Notes under the pieces: model-generated | Database searches by the model: none | Seen by the model: only the letters and a program-made list of their open reading frames with translations | Told to the model about the DNA's origin: nothing | Translations under genes and position numbers: made by a program | DNA from: a bacterium | GTDB lineage: Bacteria > Patescibacteriota > Minisyncoccia > Phycocordibacterales > Phycocordibacteraceae | Assembly: GCA_023269085.1 (NCBI GenBank) | Contig: JAHFML010000001.1 | Coordinates: 190,356-254,355 of the forward strand | Direction of reading: 5' to 3' | Length of the DNA: 64,000 nucleotides | Part shown: in pieces, positions 26,668-52,352 of the stretch | How the letters are laid out: each line of letters starts with the position of its first letter | Numbering within the stretch: the stretch's first letter is position 1

Positions 26668-28533
26668 TTATTGCACGATTCCGTCCGTCTGCACATATCC
26701 CGGGTCGTCGGGCGTATCGGTTGTCGCCGGATTCGTGTTAGCTGAAATCTGCACTCCCGCGAATCGGTCATGCCCGGAGAATGTCGGTATTCCCGTGAGC
26801 TGAACTGCCGACCCTTTCTGTGAGGCTGAAGGCGTGAACGACACACGGAAGGTCCCTTCCGCATTCCCGTTCTGCGGGATATCGCCTGCCCGCCAGGTCA
26901 GCGTCCGCGCAGTACTGTCATAGGAGAACGAGCCTGCGCCAGTCGTCTGTCCGAGATACGTGACATAACTCGGCAGGGTAAGCGTCGTGGCGCCACCCGC
27001 GAGCGTACTGCCCTTGTTCTGTGCGGTGAGCGTGATGGCATAGATAGTCGCCTGTTCGACGCGGGGCGGGAGTGGCCCACTAACCCGCGATGTGCGCGTT
27101 GCGAGTGTCGCCATTGTCGAGACCTTAGCCTGATACTGCGCCGAGACGGTCACCTGCTCGGGGACATTGGTTTGGCCCGTACGTATACCCGAGGCCGATG
27201 TCGAGAAGATAATGGTGGGCGAAGGAGCTCCCGCCGGCAGAGTCGAGAAGCTGAACGAACCCTGACCCGAAGCGCCTGGAACGAGTGATGCCAGCTTCGA
27301 ATCGGTATCTCGACTGAAGACGATCGTATGGTCGATAGAATTATAGAAGCCGTTCATCGTCCGTATGCTGTCATAATTTATCGCGGTGCCCGAGAGAGCG
27401 ACCGAAATCGATGCGTTCATGATGGTCGTTGCAAGCGTGTTCTGATAATTGACGGAGATATTCTGCGCACTATTGGGCGTCATGACCGCATTCGCAAGCA
27501 CATTCCCGCCAAGCGTGAGTGTCGTCGTGATGAAGGGTTCAGCGATCTTCACTGTCGCGTCTTGGGTCATGTACGCGATAGCGAGCGTCGGATCCTTTAT
27601 CGAATTCGCCGTGCCGACGGAAAAATGAAAAACCCTTTGGTCATTATTCTGCCCGGTGAGCGTACCGGTCAACCGTATCTGGCGGCTCGCTCCCGGCGCG
27701 AGCGTGCCGATGACAAATGATCCGTTCGTAAGCGGAAGTGAAGATGACGCAACCGAAAAACCGAAGGGGAATGTCGTGGCGAGAACGATATTGCCGATCG
27801 GCACATTCGCATTCGAACGGACCGCCAGCGAGAAGGTTATCGCCTGACCTGAGGTGAGCTCGGTGAGCGCGTCGACCGAGATCGAGAGCGGCGTTGAAGA
27901 GATCGCGAGCGCATAGGTCGACTTCTTCTCGAAGACGGCGTTGGAGCTCGCCGTGCCATACGAGAACGAGACCGGAAGGGCAAGCGCCTGCCCTGCCCCG
28001 CCGAATACGATCGCCTTGACCGACCGCGTGACTGTCGCGCCGCTCGCTATCGTCCCAAGATTTTCAACATAGCGCGGATACGGACCGAGCACGTTGACTG
28101 CACTGCGCGTGCCCTCGGGAAAGTCGATCTCGATAATCGCGTGTTCAAGCGCAATTGGGTTCTTGTTCGTGATGGTAATCGAGAATGGCACCGTATCACC
28201 ACCAGCGATTGTCGTCGGCCCCTGTATATCGATTGAGACTTTATCTGTCGAGACAGAGTTGCCACCGAAATAAAAGAGGTAGCCCGCGATACCGAGCGCG
28301 CACAAGAAGAAGACGATAGTACCCGCGAGGAAGATACTCGCGCGGCGCAGATGCCGCGTCGTACCCGGCAAGCGAGGAGCGAGGCGTTCCTTCCACTCAT
28401 GTTGGAGCGACGGCTCGCGCGGCGCCGAGAGCGGCGCGCGTTCATATCGCAATGGCGTCGGGCTATAGAGCGCCTCGCGCGCTCGCTCGACCGGACTCAC
28501 CACATTTTCTTCTTGCCGCGATTCCATAGTCAT
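26668..28533 (-). CDS. membrane-anchored surface protein with repeated beta-domains (DUF11/CARDB-like)
   Basis: 621 aa; cytoplasmic N-terminus, single TM, long Ser/Thr/Gly/Val-rich ectodomain. Confidence 0.45.
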   Translation of the reverse strand: MTMESRQEENVVSPVERAREALYSPTPLRYERAPLSAPREPSLQHEWKERLAPRLPGTTRHLRRASIFLAGTIVFFLCALGIAGYLFYFGGNSVSTDKVSIDIQGPTTIAGGDTVPFSITITNKNPIALEHAIIEIDFPEGTRSAVNVLGPYPRYVENLGTIASGATVTRSVKAIVFGGAGQALALPVSFSYGTASSNAVFEKKSTYALAISSTPLSISVDALTELTSGQAITFSLAVRSNANVPIGNIVLATTFPFGFSVASSSLPLTNGSFVIGTLAPGASRQIRLTGTLTGQNNDQRVFHFSVGTANSIKDPTLAIAYMTQDATVKIAEPFITTTLTLGGNVLANAVMTPNSAQNISVNYQNTLATTIMNASISVALSGTAINYDSIRTMNGFYNSIDHTIVFSRDTDSKLASLVPGASGQGSFSFSTLPAGAPSPTIIFSTSASGIRTGQTNVPEQVTVSAQYQAKVSTMATLATRTSRVSGPLPPRVEQATIYAITLTAQNKGSTLAGGATTLTLPSYVTYLGQTTGAGSFSYDSTARTLTWRAGDIPQNGNAEGTFRVSFTPSASQKGSAVQLTGIPTFSGHDRFAGVQISANTNPATTDTPDDPGYVQTDGIVQ

Positions 28534-28545
28534 GAGTATACCGCG

Positions 28546-29115
28546 CTAGGGATGCTTCCTATTCTTTCTCAAGCTTGAAAAGATTTTATACACCTCGACG
28601 AACGAACCGCGCTTATTCATCCATTCTGGAGGATTGCCCGGCTTGAATCCTATCCACCATGTGTCATGTCCACGTTCGCCACCATGCTGATGCTTCAATT
28701 TCTTGAACGGAATATCCTTTTTGTTGAAAATCCATATTTGTGCGTCGAACGGCGAGATGCCGATACAAATAAGAAACTTATAGTTTTGATCTCGCAATTG
28801 CTGAAAGACATACTGGCCGTTTTCCCACTCGGTCGAAAATTTTATTTCCACTCGCTCGCCCTCGATGATACGGTCCGCATCACTATCCGGTGATCGCACC
28901 ACGTCGAACCCGCGCGCGGCGCACCATCCGGCGATCAACTGTTCGCCGATTTTGCCACGCTGGCGCGATGGTCGGTGTAGTATCCATTCGAACGGGCTCC
29001 CCTGCCAGCGCGCGGCATCTGCTTTTTCATATTCTCCACGAAGCCCGAGTGCAATGCTCGCAAGCAATTCAACGTCTTTATTTTTTAGGCGGCGTTCACT
29101 CATAGTAATTGGCAT
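28546..29115 (-). CDS. putative type II restriction endonuclease (PD-(D/E)xK)
   Basis: 189 aa; SPDSDAD...EGERVEIKFS fits PD...ExK; 16-bp overlap with upstream methyltransferase. Confidence 0.5.
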   Translation of the reverse strand: MPITMSERRLKNKDVELLASIALGLRGEYEKADAARWQGSPFEWILHRPSRQRGKIGEQLIAGWCAARGFDVVRSPDSDADRIIEGERVEIKFSTEWENGQYVFQQLRDQNYKFLICIGISPFDAQIWIFNKKDIPFKKLKHQHGGERGHDTWWIGFKPGNPPEWMNKRGSFVEVYKIFSSLRKNRKHP

Positions 29116-29984
29116 TGTGCTCGTTGCGGGACTCGTATCGGTGATGGTACGGCGCCCTGCGCAAAAGAAACTTCTTTATATTTTTCAAAGCGCTTCTTCA
29201 TTACCTCAATCGCTTCAGGGTTGCTGTCCACGAGGACAAACTCTCGCCCAAGCTCAAGCGCGGCTTCACCGAAGGTTCCGCTCCCGGCAAAAAAATCCAT
29301 GACCGTATCTCCCTCCTGCGAGGACGCGAGAACAATACGACGAATAATACCAAGTGGTTTTTGCGTCGGGTATCCGGTCTTTTCTTTTCCATTCGGACTC
29401 ACGATAGTGTGCCACCACGTGTCGGTCGGTGTCTTACCGAGCGCGGCTTTTTCAGGACCGACGAGCCCGGGTGCCATGTAGGGGATGCGATCGATCTCAT
29501 CATAATTGAAAATGTAATTCTCCGCGTCCTTCGCGTACCAGAATATCGAGTCGTGCTTCGCTGGCCATTTGTTTTTGCTCCGAGCGCCATAGTCATACGC
29601 CCAGATTATTTCATTCAAGAAATTCCCACGACCAAAGATGGTGTCGAGCAGAATTTTGCAGTAGTGCGCTTCGCGATAATCGATATGAAAATATATGCTG
29701 CCGTCTGCTGTCAAAATACGATGCGCTTCGTGTAATCGGGGTTCAAGAAATCCTAGGTAATCGTCAAATGCATCGTGATACGATTTTTCTCCAAGCACGG
29801 TCGTTCGATAGGTGTTTCCTTTAAATCCTATTCGGTCTCCTTGTTCATCGCGCGTTGTCTTGAGCTGTTTGCGAGATTGGACTTTGCCAGTATTAAACGG
29901 CGGATCGATATAGATAAGCGAAACCGATTCTGATGGCATCATGCGCAATGCCTCAAGATTATCGGCAAAAATGACCTTGTTCAT
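29100..29984 (-). CDS. DNA methyltransferase, beta-class (N6-adenine or N4-cytosine)
   Basis: N-terminal DPPF motif IV (LIYIDPPFNTG), C-terminal FxGxG motif I (FFAGSGTFGEAA). Confidence 0.85.
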   Translation of the reverse strand: MNKVIFADNLEALRMMPSESVSLIYIDPPFNTGKVQSRKQLKTTRDEQGDRIGFKGNTYRTTVLGEKSYHDAFDDYLGFLEPRLHEAHRILTADGSIYFHIDYREAHYCKILLDTIFGRGNFLNEIIWAYDYGARSKNKWPAKHDSIFWYAKDAENYIFNYDEIDRIPYMAPGLVGPEKAALGKTPTDTWWHTIVSPNGKEKTGYPTQKPLGIIRRIVLASSQEGDTVMDFFAGSGTFGEAALELGREFVLVDSNPEAIEVMKKRFEKYKEVSFAQGAVPSPIRVPQRAQCQLL

Positions 29985-30013
29985 GGGTTTGATTTTACCA
30001 CAAGAAATACCCC

Positions 30014-30583
30014 TTAGAGCCCCGAGGCAGTGATGCCGGTGTTGATGCGCGAGAGGTAGTGCGACCGACGGGCACGAACGGAGGCGAGCGCGGCCTCGTC
30101 GAAGGCGAGGTCGGTGCCCGGGATCTCGCCCGCGTCGAGGCCGAGGGCGGCGAGGAGGCGAAGTACCGCGAGAATCTCAATCGCTTCGTGCTCGCTCTCG
30201 GGCGATGCTGCGAGTGCGGCGAAGAATCCGCGCATGATCGGGAAGATCTGTACATCATGTGTCTCGCCCGCGATAAGACGCGTGACGAGGCCCGACACCT
30301 GCGCCGCGCGTACCCGCGCGGCGGGCGTCGCGAGCTTCTCGAACCACCGCTCCTCAAGCACCGCTCCCGCGACCCGCCAATACTCCTTCCCGCGCACGAG
30401 CACCACGCCACTCTCCGCGAAGGTCGCGAGCGCCGCAGCGAGCTTCGCGCCTGAAACGCGCACGCTCTGCGCGCGCGCATACACGAGACCGAGGTCTTCG
30501 GTCAGGATAGCGACTGACGCCGTCGCCTCGCCGACCGGCGTGCGAGAGAGAACGATGCCGCGTGTCTCGTACTTATGCCGCAT
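30014..30583 (-). CDS. recO: DNA repair protein RecO (short form)
   Basis: 189 aa; N-terminal OB-fold sequence RGIVLSRTPVGEATASVAILTEDLGLVYARAQSVR. Confidence 0.6.
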   Translation of the reverse strand: MRHKYETRGIVLSRTPVGEATASVAILTEDLGLVYARAQSVRVSGAKLAAALATFAESGVVLVRGKEYWRVAGAVLEERWFEKLATPAARVRAAQVSGLVTRLIAGETHDVQIFPIMRGFFAALAASPESEHEAIEILAVLRLLAALGLDAGEIPGTDLAFDEAALASVRARRSHYLSRINTGITASGL

Positions 30584-30684: not shown

Positions 30685-33600
30685 CTACGCCCGAACAAGT
30701 TTGAATTGCACCGGACCAGTGGAGAGCGTCACGCTGTGAGGGCCCTCGCCTTGCACGACTTCGACCGCGTCGCCGGGCGCGAGCCCTTCGGCCTTGCGCG
30801 CCTGCGCAATCGCGCTCGCCATCTCGCGCTCGTCGCCTTCTCGAATAAGCTCAGGCGTGAGCGTCGTGTCGAGGGCGAGCTCATTGCCCACCAAAATCTC
30901 TTTCACATTCACTTCATCAGCGAGAACAGCCGAAAGCTCGCTCGTGAGCGGTTCAAAAATCGTGAGACTCGCGAGTGGCTGACGCACTTTGATGCCGGCC
31001 TTCTGTCGCAATTGTAATGCTTCTGACGCAAAGGCGCGCACGCGCGCCATGTCGGCGATCAGTGAGCTTACTTTGTCCGAAGAGTCGAGCGTGCCCCGCG
31101 AAGCCGCATCGGCGAAGTGGGACCAGTCGCACAGATGCACGCTCTCCGGCTCGCTTTCTTCTCGCACCGCGCGATACACTTCTTCGGCAATAAAGGGCAT
31201 CGCGGGCGCCATCACTTTCGACAGCTCTGCGAGCACGTGGCGCATCGTCGCGAGTGCATCCCGTTTGTCACCTCCTTCTTCTTTAAACCGATCGCGCGAG
31301 CGACGTACATACCACGCTGACAAATCATCGATGAAGAGCGCGAGCGGGCGCACCGCACGATCGAGCTCGTAGCTCTCATACCCTTCGGTCGATTCTTTCA
31401 GGAGCTCGGCGAGCCGCGCAAGAATCCATCGATCCAAGATATTCGTACTCGTCGCAGCACTCGGCGTGCCGTCGACATAGAGCTGATAAAAAGCGAGCAC
31501 ATTCATGAGCCGGCCGATGTTCTTCTTCGCGACCTCGTCGACGCCCTTCTCGGCGAAGGCGAGATTCTCTGCCTGCACGACTGGCGATACGAGGAGATAA
31601 TAGCGCAACGCATCCGCACCATACTTCTCGACGATGAGCAGGGGGTCGGGATAATTTTTCTTGCTCTTCGACAACTTCTTCCCATCTTCAGAAGAGACGA
31701 CGATGCCATTGACGATGACCTGCTCGAACGCCGGTTTGTTGAACAGGGCTCCGGCGAAGACGTGCAAATAATAGAACCATGCGCGGGTCTGATCGACGCC
31801 CTCGGCGATAAATTGTGCAGGGAACGTCTTCTCAAATTGTTCCTTGTTCTCAAACGGATAATGCCCTTGCGCATACGGCATCGCGCCCGAGTCGAACCAC
31901 GTGTCGAGCACGTCGCTCACGCGCGTGAGCGGCTCGCCCGCATCATTCACAAGCTGCACCTCGTCAATATACGGCAGATGCAGGTCGAGCTCATAGTCGC
32001 CGTTGTGCGGGAGTGGTGTGAAGTCGAGTGGATAGGGTGTCGCATATTCAATCGGATTGAACGCGTGCCGATATTCTTTCGTCTTTCCTGAAGCGATAAG
32101 CCGGAGTGATCTCACTGGATTCTTGTGCGAGACAATGAGGATGCGCGTATTCGTATACTGCTTCTCTAAATCGTAGAGCGCCGCACCAACCCTATGACGC
32201 ACTTGTTCTCCCGTTTCGCCGCCCTCTGGTGCAAGAGAGAATCGGTCGCTTGTCCCAGAAAAAAACATACTGTATTCGGCAATTGGCTTGCCGTCGAATA
32301 TACCTGCGCTTTTCTCGAAGAATCGCTCGTCGGTAATAATTGCGCTTCTTGCGAGACCGAGCTCATCCGCGACAATCTCTGCTGTCTCTTTCGTGCGTAA
32401 CAACGGCGAAGTGATTATGATATCGACACCGCCTGCTGTTACAAGCGTTTGTGCTCCTGCCTTTGCCTGCGCACGTCCAACTTCTGTAAGAGGATGCTTC
32501 ATTGCCGTCTTGGCCGTTGTGCTCATTACGTCTTCGACATTTGCAAGCGACTCGCCATGCCGCATCACAAAATACGTGTTGCCGCTTTTCTTCGTGTGCT
32601 TCTTCAACTCATCGACCGAGCCAATGACGGTGATCTCCCCCGCCGCATCCTTCCACAGAGGCATCACACTCGCCCAGAAGCGCTGGCGCGATATCGACCA
32701 GTCGCGCGCGCCTTCGAGCCACTTGCCGAAGCGACCCTCTTTAATATGCGCGGGCGACCACGCGATGCTCTCCGCATTCTTGAGCAAATCATCCTTCACC
32801 TTCGTCACTGCGACGAACCACGAAGTCGTCGCATAATTCAGAAGCGGCGTGTCGCAACGCCAGCAATGCGGATAGCTGTGCACAAGATTCTCCTTCGAGA
32901 AGAAGGTGCCATGTTCTTGCAGATATTTGATAACCTCAATGTCCGTGCCGAGCCGCACTTTGTCATCGTCGGACTTCGGCTTCACCTCCCTCCCCGCGAA
33001 GTCGGTCACCTCGCTCTTCATCGTGCCGTCTCCCTGCACATGCTGAATGAACGGGAGATTCTCTTTTTTGCCAAGCGCCATGTCGTCTTCGCCGAAGGCC
33101 GGTGCGATGTGCACGACACCCGTGCCCGTGTCGGTCGTGACGAAGTCGGCGGCGTAGACCTTCCAGCCGTTCTCGCGGTTCTTGAGCGTCGCGTCATTCT
33201 TATAATAATCAAACGGTGGTTCGTATTCGAGGCCGACGAGATCGCGGCCAACGAGGAGCCGCACCGGCCGCGAAGAAATAGTCTGGCCGAGCGGAGCGAG
33301 GAGATCCGAGGACTTTTCTGCAGTGGCCGGTGCGGCGACGATGTGGGTTTGTCCATCAACCTCGCGCACTTCGTATTCAATATTCTCCCCCACCGCGAGC
33401 GCGACGTTGCCGGGCAGTGTCCACGGCGTCGTCGTCCACGCGAGGAGATAGACCTCACCCGAGAGACCGAGCTTCTCTGGATTTTTTATTTTAAATTTCA
33501 CCGTGACCGAAATATCTTTGACATCCTTGTATCCCTCCGCGACCTCCTGTTGGGAGAGCGTTGTCTCACAGCGCGGGCAGATATGCATCGAGCGATAGTC

Positions 33601-34119
33601 CTCATAGACAAGCCCTTTGTCATAGACCTGCTTGAAGACCCACCAGACCGACTCCATGAAGGACGGGCTCATCGTCAAATAGGCGTGCTCCATATCGACC
33701 CAGCGCCCGATGCGCGGGATAATCTTCTTCCATTCGTCCGCATATTCAAACACGCTCGACCGACAGCGCTCATTGAACTTCTCCACGCCGTACGCCTTGA
33801 TATCCTTTTTATGTTTGAAGCCGAGCTCCTTCTCTATCATGTTCTCGATCGGGAGACCGTGCGTGTCCCAGCCCCACACCCGCGGGACATGATAGCCGCG
33901 CATCGTGAAGTAGCGCGGGACAGCGTCCTTGATAACGCTCGCGACAATGTGGCCATAGTGCGGCAGGCCGGTCGCGAAGGGCGGGCCATCGTAGAAAACA
34001 TATTCGCCCTTGGGCGCTTCCTTCGCGAGCGACTGCTCAAAAACCTTCTCGCGTTCCCAGAATGCGAGCGTCGCCTCCTCCCGCACGGCTGTTTCTGATT
34101 TTTCTGGCATAGACTCCAT
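30685..34119 (-). CDS. ileS: isoleucyl-tRNA synthetase (type 2) with embedded histidine-phosphatase (PGAM-like) domain
   Basis: start at MESMPEKSE; HYGH and KLSKS motifs; editing domain; ~195-aa insert with RHG and SH motifs (see findings). Confidence 0.9.
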   Translation of the reverse strand: MESMPEKSETAVREEATLAFWEREKVFEQSLAKEAPKGEYVFYDGPPFATGLPHYGHIVASVIKDAVPRYFTMRGYHVPRVWGWDTHGLPIENMIEKELGFKHKKDIKAYGVEKFNERCRSSVFEYADEWKKIIPRIGRWVDMEHAYLTMSPSFMESVWWVFKQVYDKGLVYEDYRSMHICPRCETTLSQQEVAEGYKDVKDISVTVKFKIKNPEKLGLSGEVYLLAWTTTPWTLPGNVALAVGENIEYEVREVDGQTHIVAAPATAEKSSDLLAPLGQTISSRPVRLLVGRDLVGLEYEPPFDYYKNDATLKNRENGWKVYAADFVTTDTGTGVVHIAPAFGEDDMALGKKENLPFIQHVQGDGTMKSEVTDFAGREVKPKSDDDKVRLGTDIEVIKYLQEHGTFFSKENLVHSYPHCWRCDTPLLNYATTSWFVAVTKVKDDLLKNAESIAWSPAHIKEGRFGKWLEGARDWSISRQRFWASVMPLWKDAAGEITVIGSVDELKKHTKKSGNTYFVMRHGESLANVEDVMSTTAKTAMKHPLTEVGRAQAKAGAQTLVTAGGVDIIITSPLLRTKETAEIVADELGLARSAIITDERFFEKSAGIFDGKPIAEYSMFFSGTSDRFSLAPEGGETGEQVRHRVGAALYDLEKQYTNTRILIVSHKNPVRSLRLIASGKTKEYRHAFNPIEYATPYPLDFTPLPHNGDYELDLHLPYIDEVQLVNDAGEPLTRVSDVLDTWFDSGAMPYAQGHYPFENKEQFEKTFPAQFIAEGVDQTRAWFYYLHVFAGALFNKPAFEQVIVNGIVVSSEDGKKLSKSKKNYPDPLLIVEKYGADALRYYLLVSPVVQAENLAFAEKGVDEVAKKNIGRLMNVLAFYQLYVDGTPSAATSTNILDRWILARLAELLKESTEGYESYELDRAVRPLALFIDDLSAWYVRRSRDRFKEEGGDKRDALATMRHVLAELSKVMAPAMPFIAEEVYRAVREESEPESVHLCDWSHFADAASRGTLDSSDKVSSLIADMARVRAFASEALQLRQKAGIKVRQPLASLTIFEPLTSELSAVLADEVNVKEILVGNELALDTTLTPELIREGDEREMASAIAQARKAEGLAPGDAVEVVQGEGPHSVTLSTGPVQFKLVRA

Positions 34120-34120
34120 A

Positions 34121-35788
34121 TTACATCCTCTCGGGTGCGCTGACGCCGAGGAGCGTGAGGCCATTCGTCATCGTGGTGGCGAAGGCGCGCGCGACGCGCT
34201 GTTTGTACGCCTCTTCGGGGCTCCCGAGCACTTGTTCGGATGCATAAAAAGAATTCCACGTGGCGGCAAGCGCGGTGAGGTAGGTGGTGAGAATATTCGG
34301 CGCGAGCTCCCGCGCGGCGCGCGCGACTACTTCAGGATAATGCAGGATGAGCCGCTCGATAGCATAGGGCTCGGATGGTTCTTCAATCCCGCCTTCTCCA
34401 TTCTCAGCATACGCGAGGATCTTCTTCGCCCGCACAAGCGCATACTGGAGATACGGCCCCGAATCGCCCTCGAGCGAGAGCGACTGCTCGGGGTCGAAGA
34501 TAATGTCCGAGCCCGGCGCTTGGCGCAGGATCATATATTTGATAGCACCAATAGCGACTTGCTCGGCCACATGCGGGTCCGGGTTCTTCACGAGCGCCTT
34601 GCCGATGATCTCGGTAATCAGGGCATCGGCCGTGATAACATTCCCCTCGCGCGAGCTCATCTTGCCCGAGGTGAGGCGCAAGAAGCCGTGCGGCACGTGC
34701 CGGGTCTTGGCCGCTATCGCCGGCGCGAGCTCGGCGAGCGCCGCGAGCACCACCTTGAAGTGTCCGATCTGCTCGGCTGCCGTCACGATAATCGAACGAT
34801 CATTCGGGACTCGCTCCTCTTTCAAAAAAGCGAGCCCGATGTCCTTGGCCTCATAGGTCGGCGTACCGCGACTTGTAACAAAAACGAGCGTGTGGAGCCC
34901 AACCTTCTCACCACGATAAATCACGGCGCCTTCGCTCTCTTCAAAAATTCCCTTTGCAATACCGTCATGCACCATGCGCGTACCTGGCTCGGCAGTCTCG
35001 CTCTCAAAAAAATACTGATCGAAATGTGTGCCGAGATGCTGATATATCTTCTCAAATGCTTCGAGTGATACAGCGCGCCCCTTCCGCCACAGATCCATGA
35101 CTGCCGTGTCGCTCGCCGTATAAATAACCGTGTTCAACGCATCGATTTCTGCCTTCGCTTCAGGCGAATCTTCATAGGCTTGGTTACCCGCAACATACGC
35201 CTCGCTCAATTCAAGCGTCGTGGTTGGTTCAACGATGCCGACTTTTTGCAATCCCCACAACGCCTTCGCGACATGCGGCCCGACATCGCCCTGATAATTT
35301 GCACGGATGACCGTCGCGCCTTCGTTCTCGATAAGCCGCGAGATTGATTCGCCAATCGTATTGCTCATCAAATGCCCAATATGCATTGCTTTGAATGGGT
35401 TCGGGTCGGTATACTCGATCACGACGCGCTGGCCTTCTTGCACATTCCCCTTCCCCCATCCTGTGCCTTGCGCAGAAGCCTCGGTGATGGCGCGCGCGAC
35501 GGCCGCGCGCGAAAGCGTGATGTTGATGAAGCCCGGGCCCGCGACCTCGATACTCTGTATCGAGGTCGGGCCGAGCACCGTCGAGACCCTGAGTTCTTTG
35601 ACCAGAAGCTCGGCCACCTCTTGTGGTCGTTTGCCAAGTTGCTTCGCCGCCGCTAGGGCCGCATTCGTCGCGTAGTCGCCATGCGTCATCTCGGTCGGCT
35701 GTTCGACGACAAAGGCGCCTGTCTGCCCGGCAGGCAGGCCAAGCTCCCGCAGGGCGCCAGCAACCGCTTCTCGAATCTTCTCTTCCAT
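34121..35788 (-). CDS. argS: arginyl-tRNA synthetase
   Basis: 555 aa; class I core with HVGH-type motif; C-terminal DALR anticodon-binding domain. Confidence 0.93.
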   Translation of the reverse strand: MEEKIREAVAGALRELGLPAGQTGAFVVEQPTEMTHGDYATNAALAAAKQLGKRPQEVAELLVKELRVSTVLGPTSIQSIEVAGPGFINITLSRAAVARAITEASAQGTGWGKGNVQEGQRVVIEYTDPNPFKAMHIGHLMSNTIGESISRLIENEGATVIRANYQGDVGPHVAKALWGLQKVGIVEPTTTLELSEAYVAGNQAYEDSPEAKAEIDALNTVIYTASDTAVMDLWRKGRAVSLEAFEKIYQHLGTHFDQYFFESETAEPGTRMVHDGIAKGIFEESEGAVIYRGEKVGLHTLVFVTSRGTPTYEAKDIGLAFLKEERVPNDRSIIVTAAEQIGHFKVVLAALAELAPAIAAKTRHVPHGFLRLTSGKMSSREGNVITADALITEIIGKALVKNPDPHVAEQVAIGAIKYMILRQAPGSDIIFDPEQSLSLEGDSGPYLQYALVRAKKILAYAENGEGGIEEPSEPYAIERLILHYPEVVARAARELAPNILTTYLTALAATWNSFYASEQVLGSPEEAYKQRVARAFATTMTNGLTLLGVSAPERM

Positions 35789-51817: not shown

Positions 51818-51878
51818 ACTTCGTTTATCAGTGTGTATACGCACACCGTACAAATAGTCTGATGCTATACTTCCCTCA

Positions 51879-52352
51879 ATGGCTACGAACAGCATCGCCG
51901 AGTGGGAAGGAAAAGAATACGAGCACAACCCAAAGAGCGCCGACTGGTATTGGGTGCTCGGCATCGTTGCCGTCGCGGGCGCAACCGCTTCTCTCCTCTT
52001 CGGGAATTACCTTCTCACTGTTCTCATCATCATCGCGACAGCCGCCATCGCGCTTCACGCCGCGAAGGTTCCCTCTCTCCATCAGTTCCGTCTCGTCGAG
52101 CAGGGTCTGCTGATCGGCGACGTTCTCCACCCCTTCGAGCAGATGGAATCATTCACCGTGCTCGAAGATATCGAGGGCGAGCTCCCGCCGCTCCTCTCGA
52201 TAAAGACTGAGAATTGGCACTCCCCGCACCTCGTGATCCCGCTCGAGGGCGTCGACGCCGACATGGTCTACGCCTACTTCCTCCATCATGTCGACGAGAG
52301 CGAACATCACCACACCTTCTCTGACCTAGTGGCGGCGTGGCTCGGTTTCTGA
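51879..52352 (+). CDS. hypothetical membrane protein
   Basis: 157 aa; two TM helices; His-rich C-terminus. Confidence 0.35.
   Translation: MATNSIAEWEGKEYEHNPKSADWYWVLGIVAVAGATASLLFGNYLLTVLIIIATAAIALHAAKVPSLHQFRLVEQGLLIGDVLHPFEQMESFTVLEDIEGELPPLLSIKTENWHSPHLVIPLEGVDADMVYAYFLHHVDESEHHHTFSDLVAAWLGF

Follow-up and report, generated by a model that had tools for sequence, protein, structure and literature searches.

A probable two-gene type II restriction-modification cassette inserted into a conserved housekeeping gene array of a Patescibacteria genome

Gene content and setting of the locus

The window, by which we mean the whole 64,000-nucleotide stretch analysed (contig JAHFML010000001.1 of assembly GCA_023269085.1), carries on its minus strand a methyltransferase gene (M) and a predicted restriction endonuclease gene (R) that overlap and together fill a cassette between recO and the gene for a 621-aa protein (P621). 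The genes and edges of the locus, in positions of the window, are as follows.

30014..30583, minus strand: recO, the upstream neighbour of M
28543..29999, minus strand: inserted cassette of ~1.46 kb, delimited by empty-site comparison, its edges uncertain by a few bases
29100..29984, minus strand: M, 294-aa beta-class SAM-dependent DNA methyltransferase, from its open reading frame and PF01555 match
28546..29103, minus strand: R, predicted PD-(D/E)XK restriction endonuclease of 185 aa, starting at Met5
28546..29115, minus strand: longest open reading frame of R, 189 aa, from translation
28535..28542, minus strand: GGTATACT, ancestral -10-like box of P621 just after the R stop, marking the right insertion edge
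26668..28533, minus strand: P621, downstream of R, with a DUF11 repeat (E 9.6e-12); start at 28527 or 28533

Using RecO as a probe, we collected 54 related metagenome contigs whose RecO is 52 to 80% identical, of which ~40 include downstream DNA. All of these ~40 have the gene order IleRS-RecO-P621-GlyRS with neither M nor R in between, and because recO is followed directly by P621 in them, the cassette is recognized as an insertion of ~1.46 kb. In the relatives, recO and P621 are separated by a median of 17.5 nt; in the window M and R interrupt the array, with only 29 nt left between recO and M and 12 nt between R and P621. The composition of the cassette is foreign, with a GC content of 0.488 versus 0.566 in the rest of the window and a GC3 of 0.50 (M) and 0.55 (R) versus 0.68 to 0.81 in neighbouring genes, and its DNA similarity to other carriers is limited to 28612-29966, inside the two open reading frames. 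The M-R cassette is an insertion into a conserved housekeeping array and was horizontally acquired. No transposase, integrase or significant flanking repeat was found at the cassette, and in a search for a target-site duplication the two junctions shared only 4 to 5 nt (GGTA...), a similarity without significance. Two further sequencing runs yielded assemblies (L001 and L002) with an identical copy of the cassette, matching over 2.2 kb at 100% identity.

The right junction retains a trace of the ancestral spacer. Thirty-eight relatives free of the restriction-modification (RM) genes share a conserved TATACT box between recO and P621, ~7 nt ahead of the P621 start codon and often in the form TTGTATACT or GGTATACT. 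The window has GGTATACT-CATGACT-ATG at 28527, with the box directly after the R stop, and the window contains the arrangement TATACT-N7-ATG two times, compared with an expectation of 0.1. Since the spacing from this putative promoter to the ATG is conserved in the relatives, P621 probably starts at its third codon, ATG 28527.

The isoleucyl-tRNA synthetase gene of the same array (30685..34164, minus strand; 1159 aa) has a feature of its own, a histidine-phosphatase domain inserted in the catalytic core. The insert lies at about 32059..32571 (Pfam His_Phos_1, E 1.2e-28, residues 532-702, with an RHGES motif) and splits the class-I synthetase match in two. It occupies the same position in 23 of the 54 related contigs, at 38 to 45% identity, and is apparently absent from others.

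The methyltransferase

The first-pass annotation of this DNA had described M as a beta-class methyltransferase with DPPF near its N terminus and FxGxG near its C terminus, and both motifs were confirmed at residue level.

29895..29906, minus strand: catalytic motif IV of M, DPPF, residues 27-30, from translation; aligns with DPPY of M.RsrI
29277..29291, minus strand: SAM-binding motif I of M, FAGSG (FxGxG), residues 232-236; aligns with FAGSG of M.RsrI

The N6_N4_Mtase family (PF01555) covers M over its entire model (positions 1-221 of 221, E 2.8e-49), and motif IV lies N-terminal to motif I with the target-recognition region between them, the order that defines the beta class. The PADLOC MTase_II profile PDLC03300 matches with an E value of 5e-142 (residues 2-274 on profile positions 12-284 of 302). 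Among proteins of solved structure, sequence comparison with the PDB ranks M.RsrI highest (109 bits), and the other top relatives are CcrM, EcoP15I Mod and MboIIA, all of them N6-adenine enzymes, whereas N4-cytosine enzymes are far weaker matches (E 1.9e-9 or worse). Homologs of M are labelled "adenine-specific" in public records. Because motif IV reads DPPF and not SPP[YF] and the solved relatives are all N6-adenine enzymes, M is predicted probably to methylate N6-adenine rather than N4-cytosine.

The nuclease

R consists of a single nuclease domain of 185 aa, and its predicted catalytic residues map as follows.

28840..28944, minus strand: predicted catalytic core of R, from positions invariant in 39 homologs and the AlphaFold model
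28942-28944, minus strand: Glu58, in helix 50-67
28873-28875, minus strand: Asp81, first residue of strand 81-84
28846-28848, minus strand: Glu90, in strand 87-95
28840-28842, minus strand: Lys92, in strand 87-95

An alignment of 39 homologs, 48 to 86% identical to the query, has 34 invariant positions, including Glu58, Asp81, Glu90 and Lys92, and R of the window keeps all 34. The two motifs read SPDSDAD (residues 75-81) and VEIKFS (residues 89-94). The PD-x(n)-ExK signature proposed earlier for R thus holds in substance, except that the acidic position without variation is Asp81, the final aspartate of SPDSDAD; Asp77, which forms the literal "PD", is only ~90% conserved. An AlphaFold model built from the 39-member alignment (pLDDT 86.6, pTM 0.79) has the PD-(D/E)XK fold in its expected arrangement, an alpha-beta-beta-beta-alpha-beta core with an Asp opening strand 2, Glu-x-Lys in strand 3 and a Glu in a helix. 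Its top structural match is a homing endonuclease, followed by many type II restriction endonucleases, so that a lack of nuclease-fold homologs, which the first-pass annotation had named as grounds for abandoning its reading, was not what we found.

No meaningful match to R was found in Pfam, NCBIfam or the PDB in searches by single sequence and by the 39-sequence profile. Since R has no relative in these family collections or among solved sequences, its assignment as a nuclease rests on the predicted fold, the conserved residues and a PADLOC model. The latter, REase_II profile PDLC03515, matches with an E value of 4.8e-45 (residues 12-171 on profile positions 8-169 of 186). The PADLOC matches of M and R are far beyond chance, and the PADLOC RM models, including both of these profiles, derive from REBASE. 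The family of R comprises at least 995 proteins, and public records name R and its relatives "hypothetical protein."

Gene junction and expression signals

M and R are separate, adjacent and overlapping genes on the same strand, as in type II RM systems, and the point at which they meet depends on the start codon of R.

29100..29103, minus strand: ATGA junction, in which the TGA stop of M overlaps the ATG start of R by 4 bp, from the sequence
29992..30000, minus strand: TGGTAAAAT, extended -10-like box 7 nt upstream of the M ATG, a putative leaderless-type promoter, from the sequence

The 16-bp overlap reported in the first-pass annotation is correct for the longest open reading frames, and the second in-frame ATG (Met5, 29103) reduces it to 4 bp. 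Because the public gene call for the identical protein (P0001) has 185 aa and starts at Met5, the closest homologs align from Met5, and 31 of 69 homologous loci have a 4-bp [A/G]TGA junction (most others join within a few bases), the real start of R is probably Met5 and the likelier overlap is ATGA. No Shine-Dalgarno sequence precedes either candidate ATG of R (29103 or 29115), and the ATGA junction suggests that translation of R is coupled to that of M.

Upstream of M the layout is TTTCTTGT-GGTAAAAT-CAAACCC-ATG, in which TTTCTTGT agrees with the ancestral spacer as seen in several relatives. In three other CPR carriers (L005, L006 and L069), a TAnnnT hexamer is placed at this same distance upstream of M, whereas carriers from other phyla have GGAGG ribosome-binding sites instead of this layout. 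In the window, 12 of 54 genes have a TAnnnT hexamer 6 to 7 nt before the start codon, compared with 5% of control positions. The putative leaderless-type promoter before M therefore appears, on these patterns, to be a host-specific (CPR) adaptation. M may be transcribed from this promoter of its own, and read-through from recO would also be possible. A scan for consensus sigma-70 -35/-10 elements found no promoter at the cassette, and a terminator scan returned one plus-strand terminator-like hairpin inside M, which is below chance expectation. No controller (C-protein) gene is present; with spacers of 29 nt and 12 nt and overlapping genes, no such open reading frame can fit, and no extra gene is conserved in other carriers.

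The same signal is seen more widely in the window, where many genes have a -10-like hexamer (TAnnnT, often GGTATACT) 6 to 7 nt before the start and no Shine-Dalgarno sequence, for example, at 28525..28542 (minus), 51866..51881 (plus), about 44130 (minus) and about 36610 (plus). This pattern suggests that leaderless mRNAs are widespread in the organism. The word GTATAC is 1.9-fold over-represented in the window, an excess that the promoter box near start codons may explain.

Linkage of M and R across genomes

Scanning one genome per species, we found 311 stretches that encode a relative of R and kept 80 loci, of which 77 were informative and three were ended by a contig edge. These relatives are spread over Patescibacteria, Chloroflexota, Gemmatimonadota, Planctomycetota, Verrucomicrobiota, Proteobacteria, Deinococcota (Meiothermus hypogaeus) and other phyla. 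In 76 of the 77 informative loci, all from other species, R is preceded on its strand by an M homolog with 51 to 80% identity, within ~140 bp of the R match in 72 of the 76 and at 260 to 830 bp in the other four. The layout of a methyltransferase-endonuclease operon with overlapping genes, proposed earlier from the letters of this locus, thus holds. With an M homolog accompanying R in all but one of the 77 loci, the outcome that had been set against the proposal, M being an orphan methylase, is excluded. M and R also occur together on three of four viral contigs. Such a patchy, cross-phylum and paired distribution is a hallmark of a mobile RM module.

The one exception (L003; JAKAJJ010000001.1, 4001..4489) has only a solitary R, with no methyltransferase within 4 kb upstream. 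It is the closest species-level homolog (75% identity) and has lost ~27 N-terminal codons, leaving a 144-aa open reading frame from a TTG; it is apparently a decaying remnant, as expected of a nuclease without its methylase. No third gene or mobile-element gene is conserved beside the pair within 2.5 kb in any of the carriers, the largest flank cluster being three related genomes. Three related Longimicrobiales/Gemmatimonadota genomes (L014, L021 and L052) have a gene for a ~389-aa AAA-type ATPase followed by a ~191-aa gene about 1.3 to 3.0 kb upstream of the pair, which suggests a defence island.

Distant homologs of R are carried by T4-like cyanophages (33 to 34% identity over ~140 residues; T4-GC 685; phrog_6927, E 3e-17), including Synechococcus phage S-BM3 (L141, 3133..3474), S-ShM2 (L142, 2977..3474), S-RIM14 and S-SSM2. 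No methyltransferase is annotated within 3 kb of these phage genes; membership of the wider fold family therefore extends beyond RM systems.

Candidate recognition sequences

The 64-kb window shows no clear or cassette-specific depletion of a palindrome. In 450 kb of pooled flanks from the 77 carriers, AAGCTT and CAGCTG, each with an observed/expected (O/E) ratio of 0.41, rank at the bottom of the 3,465 hexamers (bootstrap 95% intervals, 0.27 to 0.55 and 0.32 to 0.54, respectively), although all 6-bp palindromes there are low, at 0.6 to 0.8. The corresponding ratios for AAGCTT and CAGCTG are 1.02 and 0.95 in RM-free relatives and 0.96 and 1.06 in the window, a comparison in which carriers and controls differ in phylogeny and GC content. 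Given the generally low palindrome ratios, the phylogenetic difference between carriers and controls and the presence of two outlying words instead of one, we regard the depletion of AAGCTT and CAGCTG only as a lead to the target site.

The top 120 homologs of M have generic names only, with no specificity to transfer; plasmid methyltransferases are <40% identical to M, and R has no plasmid match. No named or characterized homolog that would indicate specificity was found on plasmids, in phages or in the literature searched.

GATC (0.69) and ACGT (0.59), both low in the window, were considered as targets of the cassette and rejected, being equally low in RM-free relatives. Several words are low irrespective of the cassette: O/E ratios in the window and the relatives are 0.69 and 0.58 for GATC, 0.59 and 0.77 for ACGT, and 0.76 to 0.77 and 0.76 for GGCC, and CATG stands at 0.67 in the relatives (L087 to L140). 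The depletion of these four words is a hint that the lineage is subject to restriction by further systems. In the window, CCCGGG occurs at 2.1 times its expected frequency.

A probable mobile restriction-modification module

We conclude, with a probability of roughly 87%, that M and R are a functional, horizontally acquired, orthodox type II RM module of two genes. This reading is supported by the matches to REBASE-derived profiles, the motifs of M, the fold and invariant residues of R, the pairing of the two genes across phyla, the empty site in relatives, the GC3 contrast, the gene junctions and the promoter-like boxes. M would methylate its recognition sequence on host DNA with S-adenosyl-methionine, most likely at N6 of adenine. 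R would be a small Mg2+-dependent PD-(D/E)XK endonuclease, presumably a homodimer, with Glu58, Asp81, Glu90 and Lys92 as its active site, cutting the same sequence when it is unmethylated, for example, on incoming phage or plasmid DNA. The module was inserted into the short recO-P621 spacer and left the putative promoter of the downstream gene intact. In its new place, M would be expressed first, by means of a dedicated -10 box 7 nt ahead of its start codon, the usual leaderless-type layout of this host, and R, which lacks a ribosome-binding site, would be reached by ribosomes that end translation of M at the ATGA. Such coupling would delay R and hold its level below that of M, with no need for a controller protein.

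The alternative that survives best, though we consider it improbable, is that the pair is a type II RM system by descent but now inactive, a decaying or silenced remnant within a reduced genome, in which M may be a de facto orphan. RM modules decay often, the truncated solitary R of L003 illustrates such decay in a close homolog, and no palindrome avoidance is visible in the window. The last point would be expected if the acquisition is recent, and it leaves no positive sign of restriction pressure. Against inactivity, both open reading frames are full length, R keeps the 34 invariant positions of its family and M its DPPF and FAGSG motifs, the ATGA junction and the -10 box are intact, and the cassette recurs in identical form in two other sequencing runs. 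Slightly less probable still is that R is a methylation-aware nuclease of a non-classical kind that cooperates with M in some other way, given that the strict pairing in M-to-R order with coupled genes, kept in 76 of 77 loci, marks a toxin/antidote-like RM pair, that PADLOC files the family under REase_II, that a type IIM/IV-like enzyme cutting sites methylated by its own partner would be suicidal, that N6-adenine methylation makes no mismatch needing MutH- or Vsr-like nicking and repair, and that the module does not lie within an intron, intein or host gene as a homing endonuclease would.

Returning to the type II module, we hold it conceivable but unlikely that the locus goes further and exemplifies something more particular. 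In that composite claim, R would represent a large type II restriction endonuclease family with no Pfam or NCBIfam model or solved structure, a minimal I-Ssp6803I-like fold and a recognition sequence perhaps outside the characterized prototypes, and the cassette would be a bare two-gene RM unit that landed in a promoter-sized housekeeping spacer, gained a leaderless-type promoter and kept the downstream one.

The weight of the module is mostly in annotation, and nothing here challenges the current understanding of RM systems. Labelling R as a type II RM subunit would improve defence-system counts in CPR/Patescibacteria and other phyla, and R, if cloned, could add a small restriction endonuclease, thermolabile or thermostable, of known or new specificity. 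The empty-site comparison provides a tidy example of a recent and promoter-preserving RM gain in a streamlined CPR-type genome.

Comparison with known systems

The PADLOC families MTase_II (PDLC03300) and REase_II (PDLC03515) are alike to M and R in gene size and pairing. They give no enzyme name or recognition sequence, and no characterized prototype is linked to the pair. For M, the N6-adenine methyltransferase M.RsrI of the RsrI (GAATTC) system (PDB 1eg2 and 1nw5) shares PF01555, the circular permutation, FAGSG and DPP[YF], but the 109-bit match spans only residues 72-265; because the target-recognition region is not confidently alignable, the specificity of M.RsrI is not transferable to M. 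Escherichia coli YhdJ (NCBIfam PRK11524) and CcrM have the same domain and the same permutation, with motif IV first and motif I last, but the YhdJ model scores 120 bits against M, below its cut-off of 292 bits.

For R, the minimal PD-(D/E)XK homing endonuclease I-Ssp6803I (PDB 2ost) resembles the predicted model at the level of the fold. I-Ssp6803I and the small type II restriction endonucleases ThaI (3ndh), NhoI (8q5n), PvuII and EcoRV are only 9 to 16% identical to R, with no detectable sequence homology even when a profile is used. Moreover, I-Ssp6803I is intron-encoded and has no methyltransferase partner, whereas R is paired with M. The same pairing separates R from the methyl-dependent type IIM/IV enzymes such as DpnI and NhoI, which are solitary nucleases cutting modified DNA only and resemble the modelled R at fold level.

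As an operon, M-R shares with translationally coupled type II RM systems the M-to-R order, the ATGA overlap and the lack of a controller gene, the coupling here being read from the sequence. It differs from C-protein-regulated RM systems in having no small helix-turn-helix controller gene, and R, with no ATPase, helicase or specificity subunit, differs from type I and III RM systems. The R family is still unnamed in general-purpose databases, and the cassette is a further example of a known, two-gene kind of RM system.
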